Below are positions 3,969 to 41,605 of a DNA stretch of 64,000 nucleotides, piece after piece. Numbering within the stretch: the stretch's first letter is position 1; each line of letters opens with the position of its first letter. Source of the DNA: a virus; the IMG/VR virus record IMGVR_UViG_3300010149_000010; one strand, written 5' to 3'. The notes under the pieces were generated by a model. It saw only the letters and a program-made list of their open reading frames with translations. It was not told where the DNA came from and searched no databases. Both the position numbers and the translations under genes were made by a program.

Positions 3969-6761
3969 TTAAAAGTTATTTGGGTTGAAACCACGAGGTA
4001 AGTAATTAGATTTAGAATAAAGATAGTTGTCTGCAGCATCTTTCCCATTGTCAGATAGAATAGTCTTGTAGTCCATTACGATCTTCTGCTCAAACGCACC
4101 TAATGCATCGTAGCTAGATCTGCTTGAATATTCCTCTTCGCTTGCATGGGCTGAAGGACTTGTTACTTTATCCATATTAGAGAGTACCTTTTCAGACATT
4201 GAAAAAACTTTTTCCGTTTCTTTTTCTAGTATTAATACTTTTTCATCTTCATTTTCAACTAAATCTTCATTTTTTTCAATAGTAACACTTAAATCACTGT
4301 CACTTCCAACTGAATTTAATTTATTATTTTCAATAAAAGCGACTACAGTTTTAAATTTATTTTCTAGATCGTAATACTGTTCTTTTAAATTGTCAATTTT
4401 TTTAAGTAGTTTCAATGTTTCTTCTGAAGCGTCGCAGTCCATTATCGATGCTTTCTCATCTACACTAAGAAGCACTCTCGCTTTGACATTTTCTGGAAAT
4501 TTAGATCTCTCAATTAAATCTCTTGCTGCAATAACGTGAGCACAGTCATGAATTGGAAATGATCTTTCTGGTCCACAAAAAGCAGAATCAGGCAAACTAT
4601 TCCTTGCTTCAGCAGTCAGCTGCAAACCCTCTTTCATTGTCAACGCGCTTAAGGCAAGATCAAGAATTTGCCAATCAATTTCAACTTTATCGTCTTGATC
4701 TAAAGTATCTTCTTCAAAGTAAGATTCGTCATGCTCTTCTTGTTCCTCTTCATTCGGTTCTGAAACTTCTTCTTCAAGGTCAAGTTCCAAGCCCACTTCT
4801 TCTTCACTTAATATCTTTTCACTCATGTTAAAGTCCTTTTTGGGTTTATCCATTTTTTCAGATGATTTTTTTGAATGTCCAGCAGGCAGCAAATCGTTGT
4901 CTTGCCTGTACTTTGGGTTTGAAGGGCTGCCACTCCTTACCAACTTTAAGAAAGCGTTAACTCTAGCAACACCCCACCCAGATCGCGACATGTTCGGTCT
5001 GTGAGTCGATGAGAAAGCACCAGCCCCTCTTCGATAAACTGCTTTTAGCATGCCTAGTGTAACTTTCTTACCTTTTTCTTTTCCATATTTTTCGTTATGG
5101 GCTTTTAGCTTTTCTTTTAAAGAATTTAAAACTGAGCCTACTTCAATCTTGGAACTCGCTTTAGACGCAGACCCTTCTTTGTTTTTCTTGGACCCTTTAA
5201 TTCTTTCACTAGGTTTTGCTGGAGTTTTGGCACCCTTACCCTTTGGCGAAGACTTATAAGCATCAAGATCGTAATCTCCAATCATAGTTACTTCACTTTC
5301 ATTATCGTTGGCTGCGCTTACCTTTATTGCCCAATCGATTCCTGAGGTCCCTCCCCAGCCCAACCACGCAACATAGCCTCTGTCTTTCCATGGTTCAGAC
5401 TTGAATTTTGGATCAACTGCTGCATTTTTTCTATGCCTGTTAAAAGCAGACATTCTTTTTACTGTAGACAAACCAATTTCGCTTTTGGTAGCAAGTTGTC
5501 TTGCTCTTGCCCAACCAACAGGCGTCATACCTTTTACTTCTGAGCCTTTCTCCTCTTTCCATTTTAGAACCTTTTGCGCATTCCCTCTTGCGCCAGAAGG
5601 TACTTTGAATGTTTTTTCATCCAGAAGCTCCTCCACGAGTTCTTCCAGTTGCACATACTCCTCTACAAAAGCTTCCTCATCTACGCTTCGCATGCTTCCA
5701 GAATACGTAACCTTGATGATCATTGTGTCTTTATCACCCTTTTGAGTGATGAAAGTTTCTCCACTTTTATGCAAATCATTCATTTGCTTTTCTGAAATGG
5801 CCATTTTGTGATCGTACTGCTTTTCTACTTTTTGACTTTTACTTTCTTCTTCTTCTTTTTCGGCTTCACCTTCGTAGGCATCGATTTGTTCGGTTGCTTG
5901 TAGCTCATTATGGTTCCTTAATGTATAAATAGAATCGCTCATTAAAATATCTTCTTTAAATGAATAGTTGTCTGCTAAGTTTTTATCATCTATATTGTCG
6001 GATAGTTCCATATTGACGATTTGAGATAGGTCGTCTGCAGGAGTATTTACTACTGAGCCTTCTAGGACTATGAAGTCGCCTGTTATAAATACGCAAGTCT
6101 CTCCGTCATATTTTTTGCCATGTCGATGCTCGCACATTCCATCCGTAACCCAATCTTGACTACAGATACTACAAACGTGCCTGTCTGTAGTGGACCCTGC
6201 GCTAAACGTCATGTAACGACCGTCTAAGAACTTTTTAATAGATTCTTCATCTAGTATATTAGCTTGAACTCTCATTCTTCCAAGACCGGGCCATTGCTTG
6301 TTGTCTATTAAGTTCAATTTTTTTAACGTGGTGTATATTTTGTCTGGCTCGTCGTCTACAAAAGCGTTATGTATATTCAACATTGCTTCGTTTGAATTTA
6401 AAAACGTAGAAGCATCTTCTGTTAAGCTCTGCCACTCCCCACCAACAAACCGACCTATTGGTTCACCTGATTGGTCGTGATTTTTTAATATTGGTTTGGG
6501 ATACGGATGGACTAACGAATCAATTCCTTTTTGCTGCCCTTTAGTAGAGTAAATCCTGTTGTTTATTCTACGTCCAGAGTGAGAAAGATCGTAAGTTATT
6601 ATAAGTCCTTTTTTATACTTGTCAGCGCTTTCTAGTAAATTATCAATAGCAATAATCTTCTCAGCTTTATTCAAAGACAGTATGTTTCTATCAGGATTTA
6701 TTTGTATAAAGTCGTTGTACTTGATAAATTTGTTCATTTTTAACCTCTCGGGATTAAACAT
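3969..6761 (-). CDS. Prohead protease/scaffold with inserted accessory domains
   Basis: N-terminal SHSGRRINNRIY..NHD..PIGR..FSAGS..CSIC..CEH..EGSVVNTPAD typical of large-phage prohead proteases; acidic/coiled-coil C-terminus; between portal and capsid genes. Confidence 0.75.
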   Translation of the reverse strand: MFNPERLKMNKFIKYNDFIQINPDRNILSLNKAEKIIAIDNLLESADKYKKGLIITYDLSHSGRRINNRIYSTKGQQKGIDSLVHPYPKPILKNHDQSGEPIGRFVGGEWQSLTEDASTFLNSNEAMLNIHNAFVDDEPDKIYTTLKKLNLIDNKQWPGLGRMRVQANILDEESIKKFLDGRYMTFSAGSTTDRHVCSICSQDWVTDGMCEHRHGKKYDGETCVFITGDFIVLEGSVVNTPADDLSQIVNMELSDNIDDKNLADNYSFKEDILMSDSIYTLRNHNELQATEQIDAYEGEAEKEEEESKSQKVEKQYDHKMAISEKQMNDLHKSGETFITQKGDKDTMIIKVTYSGSMRSVDEEAFVEEYVQLEELVEELLDEKTFKVPSGARGNAQKVLKWKEEKGSEVKGMTPVGWARARQLATKSEIGLSTVKRMSAFNRHRKNAAVDPKFKSEPWKDRGYVAWLGWGGTSGIDWAIKVSAANDNESEVTMIGDYDLDAYKSSPKGKGAKTPAKPSERIKGSKKNKEGSASKASSKIEVGSVLNSLKEKLKAHNEKYGKEKGKKVTLGMLKAVYRRGAGAFSSTHRPNMSRSGWGVARVNAFLKLVRSGSPSNPKYRQDNDLLPAGHSKKSSEKMDKPKKDFNMSEKILSEEEVGLELDLEEEVSEPNEEEQEEHDESYFEEDTLDQDDKVEIDWQILDLALSALTMKEGLQLTAEARNSLPDSAFCGPERSFPIHDCAHVIAARDLIERSKFPENVKARVLLSVDEKASIMDCDASEETLKLLKKIDNLKEQYYDLENKFKTVVAFIENNKLNSVGSDSDLSVTIEKNEDLVENEDEKVLILEKETEKVFSMSEKVLSNMDKVTSPSAHASEEEYSSRSSYDALGAFEQKIVMDYKTILSDNGKDAADNYLYSKSNYLPRGFNPNNF

Positions 6762-19019: not shown

Positions 19020-22000
19020 TTACATCCTATGGTGTGAGATTGGCGAATTAAACATATTGTGATTTGCTGCTACCTGCAAACTTTCCATCGCCACTTGCCG
19101 TTTATATTTTTGAATCTTTTTCATTTCATTAGACTCTTGGTTTTGAATCTTGTTTGCTTCATGAACCTTTTTAGCAGAAAGAGTGTCTTTGACTAAATGG
19201 TAATTATTTTCCCTTAAAGATCTACTGTTGAGTTTAGCACCAGACCCTTTAGAACCTCTATTCTTCACCATTCCGCCTAAATCACTTTTCATTTCGTCCA
19301 TATGTGAAAGTATAGAATTAGTATTATAGCCAAAGCTTTGGAGATCTAAATCGTGCGGTAACGAATATTTCCTGTCTGGTTTAAAAACACTTACGCTATT
19401 TTTACTTTGACCTGCTTTAAGTTTTTCTGACACCCCTTTAATGTCGTCCATTATCTGATCAGTTACCCCACCTGAAGATTGAGCTTGATTCATTAAGGAT
19501 CTAATAGACATTAAGTTTGCATTTTTTGCAACTTTTCTAACATTTGCTAAAGTGTTAAAAGTTGTAGTTTCACCACTGGCTCTGACTATCTCTTTGTAAG
19601 CTTGGAAAAAACCTGTCTTCCACATTCCTCTTTTTGAATCTTGCGCATACTCTTGTGCGCTTTCAAAAGCTTGCTGGTTATATATCGGGGGTTTACCCTT
19701 AGATTTGTAGGGTAAGTATGCTGCCGCGCCTCTTCTTACTAACTCTAAGTTTAGATTTTTTCCATCGACGTAAATCATACCAACTTGGCGACCATATGTC
19801 GTGTCATCCGGACTCGTTACTAATCTTACATCTTTAGCTTTGTTGATCAAATCTCTTGCTATAGCTTTTGCTTTTTCCGCATACGGCTGTGCCTTTCTAT
19901 CTGCATGCGCAGTCTCAGGAGCATCAATACCAGCCAAACGTATTGACATTGACTCTTGCTTTCCAGTACCCATAAAATCAGACAAAGGTGAATTTACATT
20001 TCCTTTCCTTTGAATAGATATTGTGTCTGCATCCTGTACGTTTAAATTAAAACGTTTCTTATCAAATTTATACTCTATTAGATTCTTACCTCTCAAAGAC
20101 CCGCCATATGCATCTTCTGAAAGTCTTTCAGCTCCGCTGAAAATAATGTTTTTACTTTCTTTTGAAATACCCATTTGGCGTCTAAAAGCAGTAGAAATAA
20201 ATTTTTTAAAGAAAAATCCTATATCACCTTTTTCGCTAAAGTGCCTCTGTCCAAATTTCTGCTGAATATATCTGTGGCGCTCCCTTCTCATTTGGTGGTC
20301 TTCAAGCACTCCTTGAGTATAAGCAGGGCCTTGATATGGAGATCCAAAATCAGTCAAGGCTTTTCTCATTAACGAGCCAAGCCCCGATTCTTGCATACCT
20401 TCTATACGACCGTACTTTGCTTTTATGCTTTTGACATAAGACTCCTGGTTCCCTCCGTAAAATTGACTTTGCGCTTCAAGAAACTTGCTTAAATCAGGGG
20501 CTATTAACTGTCCTGACTTTTCGTCTTCGTAGCTCGTCTTCGTTGACAGTGCAGCTAACCCTCCAGCAATTGCTGCGTACTTGCCTAAGTGCATTTTTGC
20601 AATTTCTCTAATGCTCTTATTTAAGTATAATGAACTCTTTCTTTTTGCTGACCGACTCACGCTTTCCGCAGCGCTGCTAACTGGAGGGAGCTTCTTGGAG
20701 CCACTACCCCCTTCCAAAGCTTTCGGCACAACCTCTGAAAGATTGCTTTGAGGTTTTGGTTTACTCAAGCCATCAGATATTGTTTCTTTATTTATATGAC
20801 TTCCTAAAGCTTTTGTTGGAACTTCAATTTGCTTTTGCCTAGGCGCCTCTGACCCCATAAAACGCTGTATGTTCCTTAAAAAATCTTCGCTAAACTGCCC
20901 TCCAGACAAGCGCTCTTTAAACATCCGATGCACTTCAGGCGCAGCTTCTGATTGCTGCAAAGCAGCTTTTCTCATTCCAGGGCTATCAGCGATATCGCCT
21001 TCAGAATCTAAAAAGCGCCCGTAAGTTTTTTTTGCCTCTTCTAGTATTTCAGCTTTATCAACATTCTTATAGGTGTCTAAACCATTTAGATGGTCAAAAA
21101 TTTCATCAAAACTCGTTATTCGAACCTGCTTGCTTTGCGGACCTACAGTTATCTTTTCTTTAGATGTGATATCACCAATCTTTTTAGCTTGCTCCACTAC
21201 TCTAAAACCAGGTTTGGACTCTCTAATGGTTACTGCACCTCTATCTATTCTCTCCAGCATGCTTTTTCCTACACGCTGCCTAAAGCCTATCTCGTCCAAA
21301 CCTTTAGAAACTGTTCCGTCTACTAACCTTGCTTCTTGATTGTAATAGTTGCTTAAATGACCATAAGTCATGAATCTGAAATAAGCCCCTTTGCCAGCTT
21401 TAGCTTGAGCAAGGAGTTCTTGTCCCTCACGTCCTCCTATGTCGACTAGACGTTTTGCCTCCAGTTGATCTAAACTTTCTTTGAGTACTTTGTCCTCTGT
21501 TATGGCTACGTCACCTAAAGCCATATGTGATTCAGCTTCACGCATAGCTTTAACTGCATCGTCAATCGATGCAATCTCTCCAGAGTCTTCAGCTAATCTT
21601 AATTGCTCTGTAAATCCAAAAAGACGGCCCTGAACTTCCATTGATAATGAGGTCGGCCCTTTTTGATCTATTATGCCTTCGTTTATCAATTGCGATTGTT
21701 GAGCCTTTACCATATCTATAATATCTCTGACATCGCCCTCTTGAGTGTGTTCTAGTAAGGCTTTATACATTCCTGAAAAATCGCCACTCTTTAAAGCTAA
21801 GGATCTTTGCTTATTGTATTCAACTCCAGTCGTGTAAAAGGGATCTCCTGAAGTAGAAGATACTCCCTCAATAACACCATAGAATGGGTTTTGCGTCAGT
21901 AAATTTTTATTTTCTGCTAGATTTAAAGCAGATAGTTCACTTTGGTATCTTCCATACTGAAAGCCTTCAAAGAATTGCTTCCTGTCTAAGGGTACCAGAC

Positions 22001-23105
22001 CTTGAGACGCCCTATGATCTTTTAATGCTTCGAAAGATCTTTCTGCGCCAGCATCTATTTGTGCACCGAACTGCTTGGCTTCAAAAGATGCATTTGCAAT
22101 CCATGTTATTTTGCCTTTTATTGCATTCGCTAAATCCTTAGTCATCAAGTCTTCAATAGAGTCAGTGCTTTTGAAAACTAAACCACCCTTGAACTTTTCA
22201 GAAAGTTCACCCCTAGAACGACCTGTGGTTTCATGTATGAAATCTATCAGATCGTCGCTCGTAGCTTTGCCCGTTGATATCGCGTCAAACATCTTCCTTT
22301 TAGTTACAGTTTCTGGACTTAACGCTTTTCCTGCTTCATCTACCCCTATGCCGGCTTTAATTAATTTGTCTTCATCAGCTAATAAGAGCGCTTGAAACCT
22401 ATCCGTCTCTATTAAATAATCTTGAATCGAAGATTTTAAAGCGACGTCTGTCTCGACTAAAGGCTTTACTTCTTCAGCTAGCTGAAAAACGCTAATTTCA
22501 TTTTTGGCAAATTTATCTCTAATTTCAGCTAGCTCCGTGCTCAAGCTACCAGGCTCTTCTCCAATCTTCAACATGTCGACTAGAGTAGATATAAACTTAC
22601 CTTCTCTGTGACTTCTTACGTCTTGCTTTTTTCCTACTAATCTTCTTGGACCTCTTCTCGAAAGCGCTTCCTCCCCACCTGCTTTGTCTTGTGTTATCAA
22701 CTCAGGCTTAGGGCTAAACATATACCCCTTTTGCTCTGCAGGGTTGTATACAGCGACCTGGTGGATTATGTCACCACCTTTAAGACCTGTAGTTTCGATG
22801 TCCATTAAAATTGATTTTTTTAATATTTCATCTTTAGAAAGTTTTGTAGCAGGGCCTATTTTTTTTACATCATATTTTACTTCTCCAGAGCTCGTAACTC
22901 CAGTCGCTTCAGTAGCAGCAACAGAAATTATTTTGGCGTTTTTACCATAAGCAGCTTTCACTTTTTGAAGTATGTCGGCTTCTACTTGTTTCGGTTTTAA
23001 AGGAAACCCATATTCTTGTTTTACGCCGTCTACTTCTAACTCAACAAATATTATTTGGGTTGCATCTGTCGTATTAATATAGCTGTAATACTTATTCTTA
23101 ATCAT
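19020..23105 (-). CDS. Large protein with N-terminal DEDD exonuclease-like motif and C-terminal thermonuclease (SNase) domain
   Basis: ILMDIETTGL (ExoI-like) near N-terminus; DADTI..IRLAGIDAPET..QPY..DTTYGRQVGMIYVDGKNLNLELVRRGAA is the SNase signature. Confidence 0.75.
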   Translation of the reverse strand: MIKNKYYSYINTTDATQIIFVELEVDGVKQEYGFPLKPKQVEADILQKVKAAYGKNAKIISVAATEATGVTSSGEVKYDVKKIGPATKLSKDEILKKSILMDIETTGLKGGDIIHQVAVYNPAEQKGYMFSPKPELITQDKAGGEEALSRRGPRRLVGKKQDVRSHREGKFISTLVDMLKIGEEPGSLSTELAEIRDKFAKNEISVFQLAEEVKPLVETDVALKSSIQDYLIETDRFQALLLADEDKLIKAGIGVDEAGKALSPETVTKRKMFDAISTGKATSDDLIDFIHETTGRSRGELSEKFKGGLVFKSTDSIEDLMTKDLANAIKGKITWIANASFEAKQFGAQIDAGAERSFEALKDHRASQGLVPLDRKQFFEGFQYGRYQSELSALNLAENKNLLTQNPFYGVIEGVSSTSGDPFYTTGVEYNKQRSLALKSGDFSGMYKALLEHTQEGDVRDIIDMVKAQQSQLINEGIIDQKGPTSLSMEVQGRLFGFTEQLRLAEDSGEIASIDDAVKAMREAESHMALGDVAITEDKVLKESLDQLEAKRLVDIGGREGQELLAQAKAGKGAYFRFMTYGHLSNYYNQEARLVDGTVSKGLDEIGFRQRVGKSMLERIDRGAVTIRESKPGFRVVEQAKKIGDITSKEKITVGPQSKQVRITSFDEIFDHLNGLDTYKNVDKAEILEEAKKTYGRFLDSEGDIADSPGMRKAALQQSEAAPEVHRMFKERLSGGQFSEDFLRNIQRFMGSEAPRQKQIEVPTKALGSHINKETISDGLSKPKPQSNLSEVVPKALEGGSGSKKLPPVSSAAESVSRSAKRKSSLYLNKSIREIAKMHLGKYAAIAGGLAALSTKTSYEDEKSGQLIAPDLSKFLEAQSQFYGGNQESYVKSIKAKYGRIEGMQESGLGSLMRKALTDFGSPYQGPAYTQGVLEDHQMRRERHRYIQQKFGQRHFSEKGDIGFFFKKFISTAFRRQMGISKESKNIIFSGAERLSEDAYGGSLRGKNLIEYKFDKKRFNLNVQDADTISIQRKGNVNSPLSDFMGTGKQESMSIRLAGIDAPETAHADRKAQPYAEKAKAIARDLINKAKDVRLVTSPDDTTYGRQVGMIYVDGKNLNLELVRRGAAAYLPYKSKGKPPIYNQQAFESAQEYAQDSKRGMWKTGFFQAYKEIVRASGETTTFNTLANVRKVAKNANLMSIRSLMNQAQSSGGVTDQIMDDIKGVSEKLKAGQSKNSVSVFKPDRKYSLPHDLDLQSFGYNTNSILSHMDEMKSDLGGMVKNRGSKGSGAKLNSRSLRENNYHLVKDTLSAKKVHEANKIQNQESNEMKKIQKYKRQVAMESLQVAANHNMFNSPISHHRM

Positions 23106-28002: not shown

Positions 28003-31000
28003 ATGCGTAAAGCAATTTTCTCACTTTTCCTTGGCCTGCTGTGGGCAGCTAGCTGTTATTCAGTCTATGTTGCTCCTCTAGCATTGCCTGCGTCCGCCGT
28101 GGATGCAGCGCCAATTGTTCATCCTTCAGCAGAGGTCGCAAAACCTCTTGCTACCAACCGCACTGACAACGCAACTGCTGAGATTGACCATCTTCGCAGT
28201 ACTACTATTAACAGTGGAAGCTCTACCCCTAGTCAAGGTACCTTCCCCATTAATAACCCTAACGCATTACGTCCTCGTCGTAGAGGTATTATGCGTCGCA
28301 GAAAGCTGAAGTCACGAAAGGGCAACCGCCTTGTTAGTGATGCCTTTATCAAATTTGTCTTTGGTTACCACCGTGTAACTTACATGAGTGGCAATTGGCT
28401 GTGTTACGAAGAGACGCCTTACACAGAGGCAGACTTCAAAGTGAGTAAACCAGCTAAAGCTCGTAAGAAAGCGAAGAAATCCTGGCGTCAGCTAAAGGGT
28501 GAGGCAACACGTCTTTACCAGAAGGCTGCAAAGCTTCGTAAGCGCAATCCAGAATATCCGCCTGCAATAGCCTGTGCGGTGTTTGCCAAAGCACAAAAAC
28601 TTCATCATAAAGCCAATGATATGAAGAAGGCATTAAAAGAGGCTCAACCGACAGCACGTCAACAGCGTTCATTCCGACGCTCAGTGTTGAGAGCGGAAGC
28701 CAAAACTTGCGAGCAGTTTATCAAAGCTGAGTTAGTGAGCAATGTGGACCAAGCTAAAGAGCTGATTCAAAAGGTCCTCAGTGGTGACACTAATGGAGCT
28801 GCATTGAGACTATTACAAAAATCTCAATTAGGGCGCATTTACGTAAAATATGGTATCCTCCAGGCGCCGATGAAAGAGGAAGAAGTCGAGAGACCTACGA
28901 ACCCAGTAGTCAGACACATCAAAGTAGCAGAAACCCCTGCAAGGGTATGGACCCCATTGATGCGTGCAGCGATTATAGTTATTGCACCACTCATGCTAGG
29001 TATGGATGCGGATGTAGGTACCGTCGCAGAAGTCACTTATGCTAGTGCTTCTGGTGGTATTTTAATGATGACCCTGAAGAACGTCTTGAATACTCCAGCC
29101 CGTAAGCGTGAAGCAGCGCAAGACGGGTACAATCGTTACGCAGAGCAGTCGATCAAAGCTGCAAAGGGTAGTGAATGGGATGTTTTCTCCCTCATGCGAT
29201 TCAGTCGCAGTGGTAAAGGTGCGCCGATCACCAACGGCAAAGCCCACGATACTGACAAGCAGAAGGGTCGTGCTGTCCGTATTATTCAAGATAGCATCGG
29301 CGGGGCGTACTGCCCAAAGGTAAAGTCATTCGCCAGGATGCTTGGAATTGAACTCGGCGTGGACAACTGTCTCCGTTATGAAGTTGACGACCAAATGGAT
29401 GAGGTACTAAAAGCTGACGTCGTCGAGATCTTAATGGCAGCCAGCTTTGTTATTCTTTGTGACGGCTTTGCTGTTCACAAGAGCATTGCTCGCCCCTTCA
29501 TTGAGTACGGGGAGACTATGTTCGGCAATGCTGTAGCTGTGCGCTCTTACTTCCGCAGTCTAATCACCACACCAGAGCTCTACACGGTCAACCAGGACTT
29601 ACCTATCTTCTTGGGTGACCTCGATGAGCTTATGGGATGGGCGGAGAACGATGGTGGCGCTGTGCATACCAATCGCCTGAGCGTGAGCATGCAGTTCCGA
29701 GGGATCGCGAAAGTGCTTGAGGCGAAGTACCGCATCTTGTCCAAGGGCATCACAACTTCTGCTAAGGTTATTGCTGACATCACTGATGACGTCGACAAGC
29801 CTGTCTTCGTCAACTATGAAGGCGATGAGGAAGGCCACATCAAGGGTGAGGTTCGCCTAAGCAAAAAGGTTGACGAGTGCATCCGTGTTGCAGTAGAGGA
29901 AGAATTCAACGCTCTGCATGCTGTTAACACGGCGACTAAAGAGCAGCTTTGCTTAGTTGCAGGAATTGGCCCTAAGACCGCTGAAAAGATCGTTGAAGCT
30001 CGTAATGCTGCAGGTGGGGCATTCGCTGACATGGATGCGTTCTACAACGTGTCAAGGCGCCTTGATCCCAGCAACCCGGACGCGCTTCGCGTCTTGCGTT
30101 GGTCTTTTGGCCACAAGGGCCGTGTTTACTCAGTGGGCCTATTCCTTGACAAGGGTTGTCTCAAGGGAGAAGACAAGAATGCTTGGGACTGGAACAAGCT
30201 CAACTTCTTCGGCGTCAACGGCCAAAATGTCGACTTCTGGTCTATCGCTATCGACCAGATTGGCGGCAAGATCAGCTTGGGCTGGCAGGTAGTCCAGTTA
30301 TTAGACGCTGACTTCATCGGCGGTTTGTTCAAGAACACTGATGGTAGTCTTGGAATCGCGGCCCAAAAGTTAGCGCGCCAGATCGACAATGCAATCGAGC
30401 AGGAACACCCTCTTTGTAAGCATCTCCTTGATGCAATTGAAGACAAGGGCGGTGACATTGAAAACTTGATGTCAGCCGTAAAAGCTATTTCCGTGCTTCA
30501 GGGCCTCGGGAAGACCGCCTCTAAGCGCATCAGCAATGGTCTCGGTGCGAAGGCAGGATCTTACTATGTTCAGATGATCGACATGGGTGGCGACTGGGTA
30601 ATTATCAAAACACCCAAGGCCAAGGATGGCAAGGGTTACAAGCGATGGGCTACTTGCTTCTTCGGTCGTACACCGAACCAGGGGCACGAGACCGTCCGCG
30701 CACCTATGGCGCTATCACCAACTTATGTCGGTGGATTCTTGAGGGATTATCTTGATAATGGCTTTGACGCTGTAGAGAAGCACGGCAAACAAGCCGTAAA
30801 ATTCGTTATGGGTCTCAATGATGCTTGTGGTCATGATACCGATGTAGTACGTCTTCGCTGCCGTGCGATCTTGACGATGCTCCCAGCTGTAATTGATGGA
30901 ATTGCTTTAGTCGACTCAACTCTACAACAAAAGGTATGCGGCGACAATGATGGCGACCGTAACATGATCAGCTTCGACAAGATGCTCGTTGCAATCGCCA

Positions 31001-34000
31001 AGCATATCACCCGTAAGCATCCTACTACATTCCCTGCGCGCGAGCAGTCAAAGAAGTTCGTTCTCAATACCTTTGATGATGTGGTCTTGGAGAAGGGCGG
31101 CTGGCTTCGTAGCTTTAACAAGTACATGAAAACAGGTGACTCTTCGGAGTTGCTTCTCATTTCCAAGTTCCTTTCTGCCCCCGGTGGGACTCCAGGGCAA
31201 GGGAACGTGGGTGGTGTGACGCAATGTGCTGCTGCACCAATGCTTTTCTGTGACTGGCACTGGGTCAAGAAGGATGGCAAAGATGTCTACGAGCCAGTCA
31301 ATCCAGCCGCTCGCAAGTTGGTCAATTATCTTTACTTGTGCCAGCAGATCGCCATTGACCGCCAAAAGTATTACTATTTGGCGCCTTCGCTGCTGCATTG
31401 GTTCTTTGCTGACCTTGAGGTTGGTGACGCAGTCATCAAAGAGTTGAAGGCAGGCGGCCATGCGGACACTAATTGGCTTCACAGTCACTACCCAATTCAG
31501 GGTGCTGCTGATATGTCGTTCGAAGAATACCAAGCCGCTTGGAAAAATGGTACATTGCCTGTGATCTCAGAGATCATCCCAGGCATGGGTAAAGGCGCTA
31601 TGGGCGGTCAATCTGTCGCTCCGATGATGTACTCCAACGGCCCGCTTTACGTGTGGACCGCGTGGCAGGTTAACGGTATTAACCTCGGCTTTGATTACTT
31701 CGATAAAGACAGGATGGTTGAGCTTTCTGGGTTCTTTGACGAAGAGATTGCTCAGACTGCTGACTGGCAGGGTATCATTGACCACCTCAATCTCAGTGTC
31801 TCAGCTGAACAGCTCGAGGAAAGCTGGGTGTGGCCTGGCTACATCACGGGTTGGGTCAACACCAACTTCCGTGAGTCTCAAGATCTCTCTCCAGAGACCT
31901 TCCAGTCTGCTCGCATCCATGCCAACAATGTGTGGCTCGAGAAAATGGAGCAGGCAGGTATCGATGCTGACCCAGCCGTAACTCTCGTTGAGAGTGGGTT
32001 GGCTGACGTTCTCAAGGAAAAAGCTGGCGATTATGCAGTGGAAATGCCTGCATGGGGCACACGCCTGCTAGCAACTACAATCTACCGCAGCTATGTTGCA
32101 GGTAGCTCTGAGGCTGCTGAGGCTATGAGCCAAAGCGCTCGTCTGCAAACCGACCATCACGCGTCAGGCTCCGACAAACTTTCATTCCTCCGACAAGCTC
32201 TTACGTCACGCGACATGGACGTTTCTGTTGGGGATATGAAGATTATGGAGTCCATAAAGGATCTTCGTTTCGTTTGGGCTAAAGCGTTGCAGAATGACAA
32301 AATGTCGGACGAGCGTCGACTGCAAGTCCTCTGCGCAATGATGCACTTCGGCATTACTGTCATCGCAGACTGCATCGAGGAGCTTGAGAACGATAAGACT
32401 TCTCAGATTGCTCAGAACTTCATCTGGGCACTTGAGGACCACGCAATTGCTGATATTGCCGCTCTAACTACCGCTGATAAGTGGAAAGAGTGGCGTGACG
32501 CTAATGATGCTACCTACAGCGGGCTAGAAGCAAAAAATCGCCGTGAGATGATGGATACCTGCCGAAAGCTCATGAATCGCGATGGATTTTACCACTGGAT
32601 TAGCCAACAGAACCTCAACTCCCTCAAGGCAGAGGATATCGCTACCTGGTTGGTGATGGATGGTGAGGAAGCTCACAGCAAGATCATAGACTTTATCGGT
32701 TCTGACTTCTTCGGTGCAATTGGTGAGGCTTGGTCTCGTCAAGAGCTCAAGGGCTCGCGCAACAGCGTTGAGGATGAACTGATGGATATCATCACCGATC
32801 TTATGGAACTTCCAGTTGACGACAACTTCATGGGTTGTGTAGAGGGATACTCTCGTGACTTAATCCAAGAAATCAGGGACGATGAGCTGAGGCTCCAGTC
32901 TGAAGAGGTTTCGGATGAAGCACAGATGGCATGGTACTCGCTTAATGCGAGTGAGTATGAGCGGCATGTTGCCGCGATCACTCGCCCAATCACATCGTTG
33001 ATCCGCTTGGTAAAACACCAGATGCGTGTGCTTGAGCACAACGTTGACAACGGTGCAAACCAGGAAGACGAGATTGATGTTTTCTGGCCAACCATCAAAG
33101 CCGCTCTCTTTGGCTCCCACAAAGAGCTCGATGATGAAACTGGTGAGTGGACTGACGTCACCCACGTCGAAAGTCGTATTGTTTACGAGCTACCCGTTCA
33201 GCACATCGCGACCATGAACCTTGCGGCTCTCGAGCAGGGCTATGACGTCGAGATTCTCGTTGATATGATTGACAATCCAAAGTCTTTTTACGAAGACGAG
33301 GACGGTAATGTAGAGCTGCCTTCGGAGCCAGAGGGTTACTATTACACTCGCAAGGGGTACATCCACCTCAGCGCAATCATGACAAAAATGGCGCTTGAGG
33401 TCGAGTCTCGTGACGATGTATTGCAGTGGCTGATCGCTCAGTTCAAAGGCGGTGTTGGTCACGTCACAACCAGCAAGCACTTAACCATGGCGTATGGTTC
33501 AGCTGAGGGTCGTGATCACTTCTGGTTCGTTCCAGAGGAGGAAGCTTACCCTCAGTACCACAACGACCCGCAGGTGCTCCAGGTCCAAAAGACCTTCGAG
33601 TCTTGTTACGCTGAGACCGTCACAGTCAGCTACCTCCATGACGATGCTGAAGAAACCCTTGAGGCGCTAGAGTGTTTCGAGAATCCTGAAGCATTTTCGC
33701 CAGGGGATGTTCAATACTATGAGGACTATATGAAGGAGATGTTTGAGGTGCAGATGTATCTCCCACCTCTCTTCGGCGGCCGCTCTAACTGGGACGAGCT
33801 ATATGATGGTAAGTATAGTAAGTTCTATGACGAGCAGCTAATTATGTCACCATACAAGTTGTTGCGCACTTACAGCTTCATGATGGAGGGCCAAGATGTT
33901 AGCCAGATGTCTCTTCCAGCTACGGTGCGTGACTTCCAGAATCTAGTCTATGGTTACACTGTTGGAGACAGCAAAGGCCAAAGCCAGGGTGTGCGCAGCA

Positions 34001-34527
34001 AAGAGGCCTATAAGCGCTCTGGTCGCCAGCCTAGAAACACAGCGCTTAAGGATAACATGACTAAGAAGTCATGTGAGGATTGGACTTGGGCTGGTGTGCA
34101 GAAACCAATTACCTCACAGCTCGAGGTCAAGTTCAATGGTTCTGAAGTTGTTGGTGCTGAGAACAACTTGTGCGACATCAGCATCCGTGGCTACCAAAAC
34201 CACACCTTTGATGAGTGTTGGCGCGGTGCGTACTCGTTGGTTCGTTTCACACCTAGCCTTCTCTGGAGCTTTGCCAACGTGATGGAACCTGGTGAATTCC
34301 AAGAGATTAACGCTAAGAGCATCGCTAAGGTTGGCGCTTCTTCTATCCGTCGTCACTGTATTGGTTTCCGCAAAGCCAACTTTACAGAGATGGTTGAGGG
34401 AGTAAAAGTTACGTCGTTAAAGATGGACCCAGCAATGGTTCCCTACCTTTTCGGCATCCTTGCGGATCAAGAGGAGATCGAGATCGGCATGGACGCTCTC
34501 AATAGTCCTGACCGTCCTAACGACTAA
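28003..34527 (+). CDS. Single-subunit two-barrel RNA polymerase (YonO/cellular RdRP-like) with inserted HhH domain
   Basis: Ordered motifs NDGGA, MQFR..SKG, LDKGCLK, SLGWQVVQLL, GRTP, catalytic GDNDGD (DNDGD at 30943-30957), GNVG, IAIDRQK; ComEA-like HhH VNTATKEQLCLVAGIGPKTAEKIVEAR. Confidence 0.85.
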   Translation: MRKAIFSLFLGLLWAASCYSVYVAPLALPASAVDAAPIVHPSAEVAKPLATNRTDNATAEIDHLRSTTINSGSSTPSQGTFPINNPNALRPRRRGIMRRRKLKSRKGNRLVSDAFIKFVFGYHRVTYMSGNWLCYEETPYTEADFKVSKPAKARKKAKKSWRQLKGEATRLYQKAAKLRKRNPEYPPAIACAVFAKAQKLHHKANDMKKALKEAQPTARQQRSFRRSVLRAEAKTCEQFIKAELVSNVDQAKELIQKVLSGDTNGAALRLLQKSQLGRIYVKYGILQAPMKEEEVERPTNPVVRHIKVAETPARVWTPLMRAAIIVIAPLMLGMDADVGTVAEVTYASASGGILMMTLKNVLNTPARKREAAQDGYNRYAEQSIKAAKGSEWDVFSLMRFSRSGKGAPITNGKAHDTDKQKGRAVRIIQDSIGGAYCPKVKSFARMLGIELGVDNCLRYEVDDQMDEVLKADVVEILMAASFVILCDGFAVHKSIARPFIEYGETMFGNAVAVRSYFRSLITTPELYTVNQDLPIFLGDLDELMGWAENDGGAVHTNRLSVSMQFRGIAKVLEAKYRILSKGITTSAKVIADITDDVDKPVFVNYEGDEEGHIKGEVRLSKKVDECIRVAVEEEFNALHAVNTATKEQLCLVAGIGPKTAEKIVEARNAAGGAFADMDAFYNVSRRLDPSNPDALRVLRWSFGHKGRVYSVGLFLDKGCLKGEDKNAWDWNKLNFFGVNGQNVDFWSIAIDQIGGKISLGWQVVQLLDADFIGGLFKNTDGSLGIAAQKLARQIDNAIEQEHPLCKHLLDAIEDKGGDIENLMSAVKAISVLQGLGKTASKRISNGLGAKAGSYYVQMIDMGGDWVIIKTPKAKDGKGYKRWATCFFGRTPNQGHETVRAPMALSPTYVGGFLRDYLDNGFDAVEKHGKQAVKFVMGLNDACGHDTDVVRLRCRAILTMLPAVIDGIALVDSTLQQKVCGDNDGDRNMISFDKMLVAIAKHITRKHPTTFPAREQSKKFVLNTFDDVVLEKGGWLRSFNKYMKTGDSSELLLISKFLSAPGGTPGQGNVGGVTQCAAAPMLFCDWHWVKKDGKDVYEPVNPAARKLVNYLYLCQQIAIDRQKYYYLAPSLLHWFFADLEVGDAVIKELKAGGHADTNWLHSHYPIQGAADMSFEEYQAAWKNGTLPVISEIIPGMGKGAMGGQSVAPMMYSNGPLYVWTAWQVNGINLGFDYFDKDRMVELSGFFDEEIAQTADWQGIIDHLNLSVSAEQLEESWVWPGYITGWVNTNFRESQDLSPETFQSARIHANNVWLEKMEQAGIDADPAVTLVESGLADVLKEKAGDYAVEMPAWGTRLLATTIYRSYVAGSSEAAEAMSQSARLQTDHHASGSDKLSFLRQALTSRDMDVSVGDMKIMESIKDLRFVWAKALQNDKMSDERRLQVLCAMMHFGITVIADCIEELENDKTSQIAQNFIWALEDHAIADIAALTTADKWKEWRDANDATYSGLEAKNRREMMDTCRKLMNRDGFYHWISQQNLNSLKAEDIATWLVMDGEEAHSKIIDFIGSDFFGAIGEAWSRQELKGSRNSVEDELMDIITDLMELPVDDNFMGCVEGYSRDLIQEIRDDELRLQSEEVSDEAQMAWYSLNASEYERHVAAITRPITSLIRLVKHQMRVLEHNVDNGANQEDEIDVFWPTIKAALFGSHKELDDETGEWTDVTHVESRIVYELPVQHIATMNLAALEQGYDVEILVDMIDNPKSFYEDEDGNVELPSEPEGYYYTRKGYIHLSAIMTKMALEVESRDDVLQWLIAQFKGGVGHVTTSKHLTMAYGSAEGRDHFWFVPEEEAYPQYHNDPQVLQVQKTFESCYAETVTVSYLHDDAEETLEALECFENPEAFSPGDVQYYEDYMKEMFEVQMYLPPLFGGRSNWDELYDGKYSKFYDEQLIMSPYKLLRTYSFMMEGQDVSQMSLPATVRDFQNLVYGYTVGDSKGQSQGVRSKEAYKRSGRQPRNTALKDNMTKKSCEDWTWAGVQKPITSQLEVKFNGSEVVGAENNLCDISIRGYQNHTFDECWRGAYSLVRFTPSLLWSFANVMEPGEFQEINAKSIAKVGASSIRRHCIGFRKANFTEMVEGVKVTSLKMDPAMVPYLFGILADQEEIEIGMDALNSPDRPND

Positions 34528-35410: not shown

Positions 35411-35884
35411 ATGGCTAATCAAGAACTAAAACTTCACGACGACGCTTCCGAGCTTAGTCTGCCTGAGGCACGCCTAGCGCGCCTTAAGGTTCTCCGTGAT
35501 AAAGTAGACGAAAAAGCCGCTTGGAGCGGGCGAGGCGATAAAAAGCCTGCCCGTTCCCTACTTGTAGTGGACGGTGCAGATGCGAGTCAAATCGCTTCGT
35601 ACCTGACCAGCAAGGGCCAATCATCTAGAGTGACCTTCGAGGTCACCGAGCATAAGTTACGCGGGATCTTTGACGATCATATCCGTGAGCTTGAGCGCGA
35701 GATCGCAGAGGCGGAGAAGGCAGCAATGCCCGATCCGATGCAGGCCGTTCGAGAGATGCAAGCAGCAATGCAAGCACAGCAAGCCCAATTCATGCAAATG
35801 ATGGTGGGCATGATGAGTGGTAACACTTCTCCCGAGGCTCCTGCTCCTGCCGAGACTGCTCCTGAGGCTCCTGCTGAGTCGTGA
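35411..35884 (+). CDS. Hypothetical protein with Met/Gln-rich coiled coil
   Basis: Strong AAGGAG SD, 157 aa. Confidence 0.75.
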   Translation: MANQELKLHDDASELSLPEARLARLKVLRDKVDEKAAWSGRGDKKPARSLLVVDGADASQIASYLTSKGQSSRVTFEVTEHKLRGIFDDHIRELEREIAEAEKAAMPDPMQAVREMQAAMQAQQAQFMQMMVGMMSGNTSPEAPAPAETAPEAPAES

Positions 35885-36272
35885 TTTTAAGTGAAAGCTG
35901 TTCTTCGGAGCAGTTAGTAGCAAACTCGTTAACCGAAAGGTGTGACGAGACGAGACGTAGTGTCTCAAGCCTAATTCCCCTTGGCGTAAAAATGGGGCGA
36001 AAAACTTTTCCTGTCGGAACGAAAGGATCTTCATCATGACCTACTGGGTTGATGAAAGAGGTGTTGTGCACTTCGAAAATCCACGAGCTCAATAAAAGCT
36101 TTATGGTCGCAGCTATGCGTAAATAGTGGGTAGCTATACCCTTGAAATAGCCGGAGCTATGATAGCTTCGTTAGTCAGAGAATGACAAACAATCTGATTT
36201 AGACTTTTATTATAAAAAAGTCGGCAGCCTTATTAACGGACGGACGTAATGTCGCCAGTTTCAATAATAAGC

Positions 36273-36375
36273 AGTGTCGTCGGAAGCCCTTAGGGGTGGA
36301 AGACCTGATGAGTCTAGTAGTTCATTCTGCTAGCATCGCTTTAATTAGTGATGTCCTTTAGGGGAACGAAACACT
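36273..36375 (+). ncRNA. Type III hammerhead ribozyme with four-way-junction stem II
   Basis: AGTGT/ACACT stem III, GTC cleavage triplet (after 36278), GTC/GAC stem I, CTGATGA 36305-36311, GT/AC stem II base, GAAA 36368-36371. Confidence 0.8.
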
Positions 36376-37033
36376 TTTCTCATCAAGACAGCTAACGCTG
36401 GGCCCAGTGATTTTCTAAACACTTAAAAAAAAGAACATTAGAATTTTCAACGGAAGCCAGATGCGCCTTCGTAAAGAAAAGCATAGTGCTCGCTTAGACC
36501 TTCGGGTCTTACCTGCGGAAATGAATGATAAGTTCATGTTCTAAAGGATACCAATGAGAAATGGTAAGCGGGTTACTGGCACAAGGTCGCAACTTGTGTC
36601 GCTGGAGATAAAACCAGTACCCTTAGACAAGGGGTGTGCGCGGTTTGTAGAAAAAACAAACCCATATGCGCCTCATGTCAGCAGGTCAAAATACAGTGGC
36701 TATTATCAGGCATGGTAAGTAAGTCAATAAAGAATTTCTCGGGGCTGTTCTCCCCACTTCAGTAATGTAGTACTTACTGTAATAATAGGGAACCAAGGGT
36801 CAGCCAAATAAGGCCCTGGCATGGAAGCTCCTTAGCGGGAGTGGGAAAATGCAAAACCAGCAAATCGATTAGCTAGCCTTAGCGGGCAAGTTACCGAAGA
36901 GCCGGGGATCTGTAATAGTGGTGTATTACAGACACAGTGCGAATTCCAAAAGGGGGAGCTGCCGTAGATATCTGCGGTAACGAACTTGATTAGGTGTTGC
37001 GTATTTGTGCCTTGTACGATTATATTGTGCAAG

Positions 37034-37133
37034 GGTTGTGAGGAATTGGAACGCCTCGCCTGATGAAGAGATCATTAAAAATCTGCGATCTCTCTTGGAC
37101 ATCCTTTGTACTTCGGTACATAAAGTCGAAACC
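37034..37133 (+). ncRNA. Variant type III hammerhead ribozyme (extra hairpin after CUGAUGA)
   Basis: GGT/ACC stem III, GTT triplet, GTGAGG/CCTCGC stem I, CTGATGA 37060-37066, GAC..TTCG..GTC stem II, GAAA 37128-37131. Confidence 0.5.
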
Positions 37134-37313
37134 AGCAGTCGTCTATCCAGCTATGTCAAATCCACTGCGACATATTAGAGGGATATAAAATATTAAGTGG
37201 TACCTTCAGCCTACAATGCGTTTCAGGCCGGTGTAAAAATAAGAAACGAAATACGGTTAGCGTTAGAAAGTGCGTCCGTTCTTCAGTAATTTACTGGAGT
37301 GACTTTCATTTAT

Positions 37314-37441
37314 GGCTTGCTTTGGTAGAGCCGTGGGATTCTAGGAGATGTGTGAACCTGCTTGCATGGCAGGTGGTCATTGATCCATCGGGAAGCTGCA
37401 ACTTCCTGCCACGGTTTATGGTTCGATTCCGTAACAAGCTT
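37314..37441 (+). ncRNA. tRNA-like RNA with expanded branched domain in place of the anticodon arm
   Basis: GGCTTG/CAAGCT acceptor, TGGTA D-loop-like segment, CCGTGG/CCACGG helix, T-arm TATGG-TTCGATT-CCGTA. Confidence 0.6.
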
Positions 37442-37814
37442 TAGTCTCTCAGCACAGAGACAATCACAAGCCCTGTAGAAAGGAATATACAGGCCAGGGT
37501 AGACTCCCAATAATGGTAGAGTCCCCTGAATTAAAAGCGCGATTAAAGCGCTCAAGACTACTTTTCCTAAGGGTACAACACTTATTATTTTGACAAAAGA
37601 CGAGACGAGACGAGACAGAAACGTCTGCTGGCCACAATAGTCAAATAAATATGCGTAATAAAACTAATAAATACTTAATATATATAGTGTTTTTAGAAAA
37701 AGACATAAATAGTGAGAGTGGACCTAGTATAATAATGTTAATCGGGAAGAAAAACATTAACTAGGTAAACAATAAGCCACCCTAAAACAATCTTGCTGTG
37801 AAGCAGATCACGCT

Positions 37815-37860
37815 GCCAGGGCTCGAAAGGTCATTGTAGGTTCAAGTCCTACCCGCTGGT
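37815..37860 (+). ncRNA. tRNA minihelix-like element (T-arm plus acceptor-like stem)
   Basis: GTAGG-TTCAAGT-CCTAC T-arm; GCCAG/CTGGT closing stem. Confidence 0.35.
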
Positions 37861-37866
37861 AAGCAA

Positions 37867-37933
37867 TCGCGTATAGTGTAAAGGTACACGCCATAGTGAT
37901 ATGGAAATGTAGGTTCAAGTCCTTCTACGTGGG
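37867..37933 (+). tRNA. Degenerate tRNA/pseudo-tRNA with shortened anticodon loop
   Basis: TCGCGTA/TACGTGG acceptor, GTGT/ACAC D-stem, CCATA-GTGA-TATGG arm, GTAGG-TTCAAGT-CCTTC T-arm (one mismatch). Confidence 0.5.
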
Positions 37934-37983
37934 TTAGATTCGTTCCAGTAAAAAATAGATTCAAAGCATATAGGAATAAATAT

Positions 37984-38978: not shown

Positions 38979-39695
38979 ATGATGAAATTAATATCATCGA
39001 TAATTCTCACCCTTCAATCTTCCTTATCCTTCTTATTCAGTGGTGGTGAAGTAGCGATGAACTTAGCAGACAGCAATAAGCTATCAGTTGAGGCTAAAAA
39101 GTTCGTCGACGGCGGAACTCGCAGTTTAGGAACTTGTGCATTAGCTAACCACTTAGCCAATGCTGGGTTCAGCATGTTAAACGGCTTCCTCGTAGGTTCT
39201 TACTGCGGATGGCAATGGGGACTGTTTACGACAGTCTTCTCTCTGCTTGGATTATGGTATCTTGGTGAGCTGTTACCAAAGATGACTGCAGCCAAAGCGC
39301 CAGAAAAGTTCTTAAACACTCATGCAAAAAAACTCCTCGCTGCAAAATCTCTACTATCTCCCATAGTGGACAGGATTGTGAAAGAAGAGCCAAGATGCGA
39401 AGTAAAAGAGAATGAGAAGGAATTAGTATCTGCCGCCCGTATGGCAGATGAAAAATGGAGCATCCTCTTACTACCTTTGTACGATGAACCAAAAGGAGGT
39501 AAAGCCCCATCTCTGATTCATAAAATTTCTTCATTGAGCTCCATAGAGGAGGTCATGTTGGCGGTGTGCTTGAAGAAAGAAGACAAAATAGTAGAATACC
39601 AAGTGATCGATGCCTACCACTTAAATGTAGTAGGATATTTCAACCCAATCACCATCATTCGTTGGATGATGGATCATAAAGAATTGAAAAAATGA
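38979..39695 (+). CDS. DUF21/CNNM-type transmembrane domain protein
   Basis: SFLFSGGEVA, LANHLAN and LGELLPKMTA..PEK match the DUF21 pattern (FS..E.A, N...N, GE..PK..A). Confidence 0.65.
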   Translation: MMKLISSIILTLQSSLSFLFSGGEVAMNLADSNKLSVEAKKFVDGGTRSLGTCALANHLANAGFSMLNGFLVGSYCGWQWGLFTTVFSLLGLWYLGELLPKMTAAKAPEKFLNTHAKKLLAAKSLLSPIVDRIVKEEPRCEVKENEKELVSAARMADEKWSILLLPLYDEPKGGKAPSLIHKISSLSSIEEVMLAVCLKKEDKIVEYQVIDAYHLNVVGYFNPITIIRWMMDHKELKK

Positions 39696-41263: not shown

Positions 41264-41400
41264 TGTCGAAATCAAATAACAGAACTTGTGTTATTCCTTT
41301 CTGGAGTTTTGTTATAGAGCTAATGATATGCTCTCGCCTCTGTTGTGTGCGGCGTGATAGGGTGTGTACCCCTGATGACTCCATGATGGAGTGATTGTAT
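41264..41400 (+). ncRNA. Possible type II (permuted) hammerhead-like RNA
   Basis: GTC-GAAA-TCA (GAAA 41268-41271) ... TGAT-A, GGGT-GTGT-ACCC stem I, CTGATGA 41372-41378; stem II pairing uncertain. Confidence 0.35.
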
Positions 41401-41605
41401 TTTTCTAATGACGTAACGTCAGGAGACAACATGAATAGTAAAACTATGCACTGGATCATTTACGACCTGTTGGTTCAAACAGGCCATATAAAATCAATAG
41501 GATATGGTCTTGGAGACCAGGACGGATGTTTAGTAGAGAGGAATCTAAATGTTTACAACTCTCACACTAACAAAACCCCAGCGAAAACCCCTAAAAGGAG
41601 CCGAA

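Follow-up and report, generated by a model that had tools for sequence, protein, structure and literature searches.

Apart from ribosomal RNA, structured non-coding RNAs exceeding 1 kb are very rare in bacteria and phages, and those that have been described, among them GOLLD, ROOL and OLE, are largely unexplained. Hammerhead ribozymes are known to cluster in prophages, where several may occur in one transcript and where they flank genes (Perreault et al. 2011, PMC3088659). Here, a locus that combines a large structured RNA with hammerhead motifs is described from a 64,000-nucleotide stretch of DNA of an uncultured marine phage (IMG/VR record IMGVR_UViG_3300010149_000010; the whole stretch is called the window). 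The locus, about 2 kb in length, is non-coding, has conserved structure on the + strand, carries hammerhead motifs and is modular in its architecture. On balance it is probably a gene whose transcript, a self-processing precursor, gives rise to linear, large, structured non-coding RNAs; its transcription, the cleavage itself, the ends of the RNAs and their function are proposed here from comparisons of sequence.

A gene-free locus in uncultured marine phages

35885-37983, + strand: gene-free RNA locus of about 2 kb

The gap begins directly after the stop codon of an open reading frame (ORF) of 157 amino acids (aa; 35411-35884) and ends before the next plausible gene, in a window whose remainder is densely coding. 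The longest ORFs within it under genetic code 11 are scattered over both strands and reach 40-81 aa, and reassignment of any single stop codon yields no frame longer than about 157 codons, which rules out a gene written in an alternative genetic code. An original prediction made from the letters of the window had taken this lack of a credible ORF, together with dense hairpins containing G-U pairs, as signs of a structured + strand RNA punctuated by ribozymes, and comparative evidence from conserved hammerheads and tRNA-like folds now backs that view. Between the two predicted cleavage sites (36279-37037), the folding energy is -248 kcal/mol on the + strand (z -5.8 against dinucleotide shuffles) and -205 kcal/mol on the - strand (z -2.6), an asymmetry that recurs in alignments of homologues. 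The Rfam scan proposed with that prediction returned for the gap only a tRNA-like match (37867-37933) and a sub-threshold Hammerhead_3 match (36271-36377), and in the window and nine homologous loci no catalogued large RNA of Rfam 15, GOLLD and ROOL included, was matched, whether at the gathering threshold or with E<=10.

Relatives were gathered through homologues of neighbouring proteins and through DNA patterns, giving 12 related lineages, each of which comes from a marine or aquatic metagenome; eight were compared in detail, including G001 (locus L013), a complete genome of 161.8 kb with terminal repeats. In all 12, a gene-free stretch of 1.6-3.5 kb follows a gene for a YonO-like polymerase of 2,100-2,200 aa and one or two small ORFs, and the layout downstream of the polymerase gene is the same throughout. 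The polymerase-like ORF of the window (28003-34527) encodes 2,174 aa, in which Pfam recognizes only a HhH motif. Among 50,697 cultured phage records it has no tblastn match, and the RNA locus has no DNA or protein similarity there. As judged from sequence, the phage lineage of the window is far from anything cultured, and the carriers of the locus are uncultured marine phages of about 160 kb with a giant YonO-like RNA polymerase encoded just upstream. A pattern for the first ribozyme had no match in 185,579 prokaryote genomes and so offers no clue to a host or a prophage. Other pattern matches (L003, L015-L023, L037, L038, L044, L046, L049-L052) lie inside coding DNA and are attributed to chance. 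A tie between the RNA and the 157-aa ORF upstream was rejected since that ORF is not conserved, its position in G001 being taken by an unrelated ORF of 201 aa.

Two hammerhead motifs

36273-36375, + strand: HH1, type III hammerhead, predicted cut after C36278
36273-36277 with 36371-36375, + strand: stem III of HH1
36279-36304, + strand: stem I of HH1
36305-36311, + strand: core CUGAUGA of HH1
36368-36371, + strand: GAAA of HH1
36379-36385, + strand: anti-core CUCAUCA, complementary to the HH1 core UGAUGAG
37034-37133, + strand: HH2, variant type III hammerhead, predicted cut after U37037 (GUU)
37038-37059, + strand: stem I of HH2
37060-37066, + strand: CUGAUGA of HH2
37067-37093, + strand: extra hairpin of HH2, AGAGAUC..GAUCUCU, 7 bp, between A9 and stem II
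37098-37100 with 37125-37127, + strand: stem II of HH2 (GAC/GUC)
37128-37131, + strand: GAAA of HH2

Both of the hammerhead cores that had been predicted, with cuts after 36278 and 37037, prove to be real and conserved motifs for which cleavage is predicted. The first, HH1, occurs in 12 of 12 lineages with a GUC triplet (ending at 36278 in the window), a stem I with a symmetric internal loop, CUGANGA, stem II, GAAA and a stem III of 4-7 bp. Its core is that of a type III hammerhead, with CUGANGA, GAAA, the pairs G10.1-C11.1 and A15.1-U16.1 and an NUH triplet; the free position 7 is U or A, and this is the sole change that recurs without penalty. Stem II is unusual in that a base of 2 bp (G-C, U-A) opens into three hairpins to form a four-way junction. 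From the alignment alone RNAalifold returns the hammerhead fold with stems III, I and II, and 16 of its 28 pairs are compensatory, with changes on both sides, such that stems I and III and all three hairpins of stem II covary. Paired cells amount to 94%, compared with 84% in shuffles and 36-50% in slid controls. None of 500 shuffles reached the observed percentage paired, the pairs and cells with two-sided changes or the covariation score; the number of further pair types was matched by 30 of the 500.

Downstream of HH1, 10 of 12 lineages have a Watson-Crick complement of 5-7 nt to its core no more than about 25 nt away (45 nt scanned), and the cores with A at position 7 (L026, L034, L040) have U at the matching position of this anti-core. 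The copies of HH2 provide a negative control, as none of six is followed by a core complement of at least 6 nt. This pattern suggests an alternative fold that would hide the catalytic core after cleavage or compete with it.

The second motif, HH2, is found in five of the eight lineages compared in detail (the window, L024, L026, L034 and L029, which has two copies) and was not found in G001, L032 or the L001-type lineages. Its common layout comprises a GGU(U/C) site, a covarying stem I of 6-7 bp, CUGA(U/C)GA and a GAC..GUC stem closing directly onto GAAACC. The AGAGAUC..GAUCUCU hairpin is invariant, and a second hairpin stands beside it in three lineages. This hairpin and its linker (37067-37097 in the window) separate A9 from G10.1 in six of six copies, so that the core is interrupted in every one; it is otherwise canonical and varies solely at position 7. 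Weak stems III are common among the hammerheads of prophages, in which stem II may be as short as 2 bp (Perreault et al. 2011, PMC3088659). The two HH2-type ribozymes of L029 (8477-9166) lie about 490 nt apart, the first with a branched stem I and an ambiguous cleavage site.

Two further ribozyme candidates were rejected. A possible third hammerhead at 41340-41440 of the window has CUGAUGA at 41373 and two hairpins, lacks GAAA and is followed by a Shine-Dalgarno sequence and ATG. An HDV-like ribozyme matched weakly in L013 (2523-2595, - strand; F. prausnitzii model, 25.9 bits, E 0.81), upstream of a gene with a CNNM domain, has no counterpart in the window.

An exchangeable body between conserved ends

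36482-36620, + strand: body domain 1 (model R1), 115-159 bits with its covariance model in every window-like and G001-like lineage
36791-36934, + strand: body domain 2 (model R2), 105-161 bits with its covariance model in seven lineages

Between the two hammerheads, 580 nt of the window (36460-37040) align colinearly with six lineages. RNAalifold predicts for this body 106 pairs in 21 helices. Paired cells make up 90.5% (shuffles, 81.4%; slid controls, 38-46%), and double (compensatory) changes affect 48 pairs, a number reached by none of 500 shuffles. Compensatory changes appear here as well as in HH1, and are found also in the leader and the 3' domain described below. Alignment energies differ between the + strand (-73.4) and its reverse complement (-52.0). 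Several blocks of 30-40 nt are nearly invariant, as is the stretch GGAAGCUCCUUAGCGGGAGUGGGAAAAUGCAAAACC inside domain 2; since the best-conserved block contains 1-nt indels, a hidden gene is excluded.

Domain 1 scores only 19 bits in L040, and in the L001 lineage neither domain has a covariance-model match even with filters off, which implies that the middle of the RNA is replaceable. A block of 400 nt (36342-36741) differs from G001 by three mismatches (99% identity), its flanks are 50-85% identical, and the G001 polymerase is only 42% identical in protein to that of the window. Such a block suggests that an RNA module passed horizontally, and recently, between distant phages. The pattern may be read as one in which only the ends, namely the leader with HH1 and the 3' domain, are universal and the body can be swapped.

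35885-35975, + strand: conserved 5' leader, aligned over eight lineages, with compensatory changes in its hairpins
35897-35913, + strand: leader hairpin UUCG
35932-35941, + strand: leader hairpin GAAA
35944-35957, + strand: motif GACGAGACGAGACG in the leader, followed by a hairpin
35952-35966, + strand: leader hairpin GAGAC-GUAGU-GUCUC
35976-36190, + strand: lineage-variable leader module; L029 and L034 have it at 76-81% identity, and L001 and L032 have about 30 nt in its place
36202-36271, + strand: structured region 5' of HH1, an AU-rich hairpin (36202-36222) followed by helix P0
36229-36235 with 36265-36271, + strand: helix P0, enclosing the conserved hairpin AACGG-AC-GUAAUGU-CG-CCAGUU
37467-37591, + strand: universal 3' domain, three hairpins including CAGGG-UA-GACUC-loop-GAGUC-CCCUG, then a U-rich tract
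37599-37617, + strand: 3' GACGAGACG motif, with a small hairpin after it
37667-37727, + strand: highly conserved AT-rich block (ATAAATACYTAATATATA .. GGTGSACCTAG)

At the 5' end, helix P0 pairs in 11 of 11 sequences from differing bases (CUUAUUA/UAAUAAG, CUUAAUUGAU/AUCAAUUGAG and others), and the hairpin that it encloses changes from GG/CC to AG/CU in L029 and L034. Because P0 and the leader hairpins covary, the leader is read as RNA and transcription as starting upstream of 36200. At the other end, the 3' domain is present in eight of eight lineages compared, with 9 of its 25 pairs compensatory, and its U-rich tract (37582-37591) is the probable 3' end of the RNA. The two ends are marked by direct repeats, GACGAGACG(A/U)GAC, that are confined to the borders of the element, one at each, in the window as in the complete genome of G001. 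A general phage promoter was rejected as their explanation, there being only two copies in that 161.8-kb genome; they might be bound by a protein specific to the locus, or act in termination or in the manner of a nut site. The AT-rich block that follows is probably a promoter or the start of the next transcription unit. In L001 (8686-8751) and L013 (G1rc 6176-6240), C/A-rich, G-poor repeats of CCCTA-like units follow a conserved GGTGCACCTAG block and may be the unstructured leader of that next unit.

Accessory tRNA-like units and neighbouring features

37314-37441, + strand: tRNA-like unit 1, with a 6-bp acceptor-like stem, a T arm with the loop UUCGAUU and a long two-hairpin arm replacing the anticodon arm
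37812-37933, + strand: tRNA-like units 2 (about 37812-37862) and 3 (37867-37933)

Three tRNA-like units had been predicted toward the 3' end of the locus. Their acceptor and T arms are retained and show compensatory changes between lineages; the units are restricted to particular lineages, and the anticodon loop is absent from all three. Unit 1 occurs only in the window and L024 lineages, with compensatory changes between them. Units 2 and 3, beyond the 3' GACGAGACG motif and the AT-rich block, are shared by the window with L026 only, with seven compensated pairs. Unit 2 is predicted to fold as an acceptor stem and T arm, and unit 3 scores 37.2 bits as an Rfam tRNA, above the gathering score of 29, with a 4-nt "anticodon loop"; none has the 7-nt anticodon loop of the tRNA family (RF00005). 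ARAGORN finds no tRNA anywhere in the gap and calls none of the three. The units are best described, on their distribution, as lineage-specific accessory modules that might, by analogy, provide RNase P/Z punctuation, serve as further processing or stabilizing signals, or act as mimics.

A shorter element also recurs across the locus. The tetranucleotide UUAG occurs 17 times in 35885-37620, 2.6 times the background, often as the loop of C-rich/G-rich hairpins (CCC-UUAG-GGG, CUCC-UUAG-CGGGAG, GCC-UUAG-CGGGC), and could represent a loop motif used repeatedly or a site bound by protein. Elsewhere in the window, a 238-aa protein with a CNNM transmembrane domain (38979-39695, + strand) holds a syntenic position downstream of the RNA in several of the relatives, and a 1,361-aa protein with a staphylococcal-nuclease domain is encoded at 19020-23105 (- strand).

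Proposed processing and competing explanations

In the pathway favored here, the + strand would be transcribed through the structured leader, either by read-through from the small upstream ORFs or from a start inside the leader itself. Cleavage by HH1 after C36278 would free an RNA of about 1.3 kb with a 5'-OH, likely ending near 37590, and would leave upstream a structured leader or mRNA with a 2',3'-cyclic phosphate end. Pairing of the anti-core (36379-36385) with the catalytic core could confine cleavage to a co-transcriptional interval or keep the product from being ligated again. In this lineage, and only some others, a second cut by HH2 after U37037 would divide the product into two RNAs, one of 759 nt with the HH1 body and both conserved domains (1 and 2) and one of about 550 nt with the HH2 body, tRNA-like unit 1 and the universal 3' domain. 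Release of such a fragment of about 760 nt had been foreseen, and it is indeed predicted for the window; as HH2 was not found in G001, L032 and the L001-type lineages, it is a feature of the lineage and not of the family. The distance between HH1 and HH2 ranges from about 0.76 to 2.1 kb in other lineages.

Several observations weigh against this pathway. Scans for sigma-70 promoters and intrinsic terminators found sites no commoner than in shuffles and no convincing promoter, and the U tract at 37582-37591 is not preceded by a canonical terminator hairpin. In Rfam, HH1 scores 17.8 bits with Hammerhead_3 (E 3.4), below the gathering score of 48.5, a low score ascribed to the 52-nt, three-hairpin stem II and not to a damaged core; HH2 goes undetected even at E<=10. 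The stem III of HH2 has 3 bp in the window and 3-4 bp across copies, and its GUU site and the hairpin inserted after A9 are further weaknesses. The HH1 core has changed from C3 to U, which should weaken catalysis, at four loci in two lineage groups (L001/L043/L047 and L040); L039, L041 and L048, sisters of L001, retain C3. The altered cores, UUGAUGAG and UUGAAGAG, at L001 6664-6795 and L040 8395 may represent attenuated or dead ribozymes kept in an otherwise intact locus. The comparative sequences are moreover few (5-11) and related, the structures were scored on the alignments from which they were derived, and any functional reading is itself a guess.

That guess is of a host-interaction, decoy or scaffold RNA made during infection. 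The lean toward a decoy or scaffold, tentative and rather doubtful, arises because constant ends, a body that can be swapped and has been exchanged horizontally, and tRNA-shaped additions recall phage loci that deal with the host. Use of the RNA as a template for the nearby YonO/RdRP-like polymerase, also entertained in the original prediction, is unsupported, as nothing links the RNA to the polymerase in that way. A bolder view, unlikely as it stands, joins several of these threads and treats the locus as an "RNA cargo slot" in which the universal ends would be the expression, processing and recombination arms for swapping structured RNAs of more than 1 kb. The arms would consist of the leader with its once-per-genome GACGAGACG site, a kinetically gated HH1 with its anti-core, the 3' domain and the second GACGAGACG site; as cargo they would carry either anti-defence decoys or GOLLD/ROOL-like self-assembling RNAs, part of which, where two like copies of HH2 are present, could be released as a circle.

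The competing explanation that best survives, still decidedly unlikely, holds that the locus is a patchwork of independent small RNA elements, such as degenerate tRNA genes, mobile hammerheads and terminator or leader hairpins, gathered in a recombination hot spot. The mosaic of a nearly identical 400-nt block between diverged flanks would fit such an origin, as would a body not shared with the L001 lineage and tRNA-like units confined to a few lineages. The leader, HH1, domains 1 and 2 and the 3' domain nevertheless keep their order and colinearity across lineages, the body holds several nearly invariant blocks of 30-40 nt, and compensatory pairs would not persist in relics.

Circularization, an outcome that the original prediction had considered, is improbable in this locus. 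Hammerhead cleavage yields 5'-OH and 2',3'-cyclic phosphate ends that RtcB can join, and two same-strand type III hammerheads about 760 nt apart bracket a highly structured non-coding RNA, so that ligation of 36279-37037 into a 759-nt circle would follow the example of retrozymes and viroid-like RNAs. The 5' strand of HH2 (GGGUU) cannot, however, pair with the 3' stem III strand of HH1 (ACACU) to give a composite ribozyme, HH2 was not found in three of the eight lineages compared in detail or in later L001-type loci, and the complete relative G001 encodes neither RtcB nor an RNA_ligase domain (PF09414), though a host might supply RtcB. Circles were sought for clustered phage hammerheads and none were found (Perreault et al. 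2011, PMC3088659). Because the ends cannot rebuild a ribozyme, HH2 is optional and G001 lacks these ligases, linear cleavage products are the most likely outcome. Only in L029 does the geometry make a viroid-style circle plausible: its two HH2-type copies have the stem III strand GAAACCA in common, and the ends of the intervening fragment could come together as a hammerhead.

A long untranslated region (UTR) or other regulatory region has similarly poor prospects. It might be a 3' UTR that stabilizes the mRNA of the polymerase operon or a leader that controls downstream early genes, with the GACGAGACG-plus-hairpin sites acting as nut-like or terminator signals. This would accord with a structured leader that begins at the stop codon of the upstream ORF, with a motif and hairpin occurring exactly twice per genome, at the start and end of the unit, and with the promoter-like conserved block that follows. 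Yet 1.3-2.5 kb of conserved, covarying structure far exceeds the needs of known UTR elements, HH1 would sever most of that structure from the upstream mRNA, and the upstream ORF is not conserved. Finally, a DNA-level element (a replication origin, packaging site or recombination cassette site) with incidental RNA-like features, to which the lack of ORFs, the unique direct repeats at both borders and the adjoining AT-rich blocks might be traced, is highly improbable given that G-U pairs and the energy asymmetry favor one strand, that covariation keeps pairing and not sequence, and that intact hammerhead cores serve nothing at the DNA level.

Comparison with known systems

As a gene for a self-processing RNA precursor, the locus would be a new and well-delimited example of a large RNA, with predicted ribozyme-defined ends that should ease expression and purification for structural work. 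It joins two open questions, the purpose of bacterial and phage hammerheads and the role of large phage RNAs, and suggests that hammerheads mature non-coding RNAs besides cutting mRNAs. Its two unusual hammerhead architectures and the covarying anti-core offer natural test cases for scaffold tolerance and for co-transcriptional gating of cleavage.

The type III hammerheads of phages and prophages (RF00008) are similar to those described here in their core, NUH site, weak or open stem III and short stem II base, as well as in the phage context and the presence of several ribozymes per transcript. In contrast to those systems, the ribozymes of this locus bound a non-coding structured RNA rather than genes, HH1 has a four-way junction and a covarying anti-core, HH2 has one or two hairpins between A9 and G10.1, and both fall below Rfam thresholds. 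The resemblance to GOLLD and ROOL lies in a very large, intricately folded phage RNA of unexplained function near tRNA or tRNA-like genes, whereas the RNA of this locus is longer (1.3-2.5 kb), carries ribozymes of the self-cleaving type, has a swappable body between conserved ends and matches no large RNA of Rfam 15 in sequence or structure.

Retrozymes and viroid-like RNAs represent another paradigm, in which two direct type III hammerheads likewise bracket a structured non-coding RNA of about 0.6-1 kb. Here, however, HH1 and HH2 are not copies of one another and cannot rebuild a single ribozyme, so that the pair is not equivalent to that of a retrozyme, and the locus is without long terminal repeats, encoded by a DNA phage and syntenic, with a second ribozyme that is optional. 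The tRNA-like units, for their part, share an acceptor stem, a canonical T loop and the lack of a decoding anticodon arm with the tRNA-like domain of tmRNA, mascRNA-type signals and viral tRNA-like structures, while differing from them in having neither a tag ORF nor an encoded CCA and in being restricted to certain lineages, their processing by RNase P/Z being conjectural.

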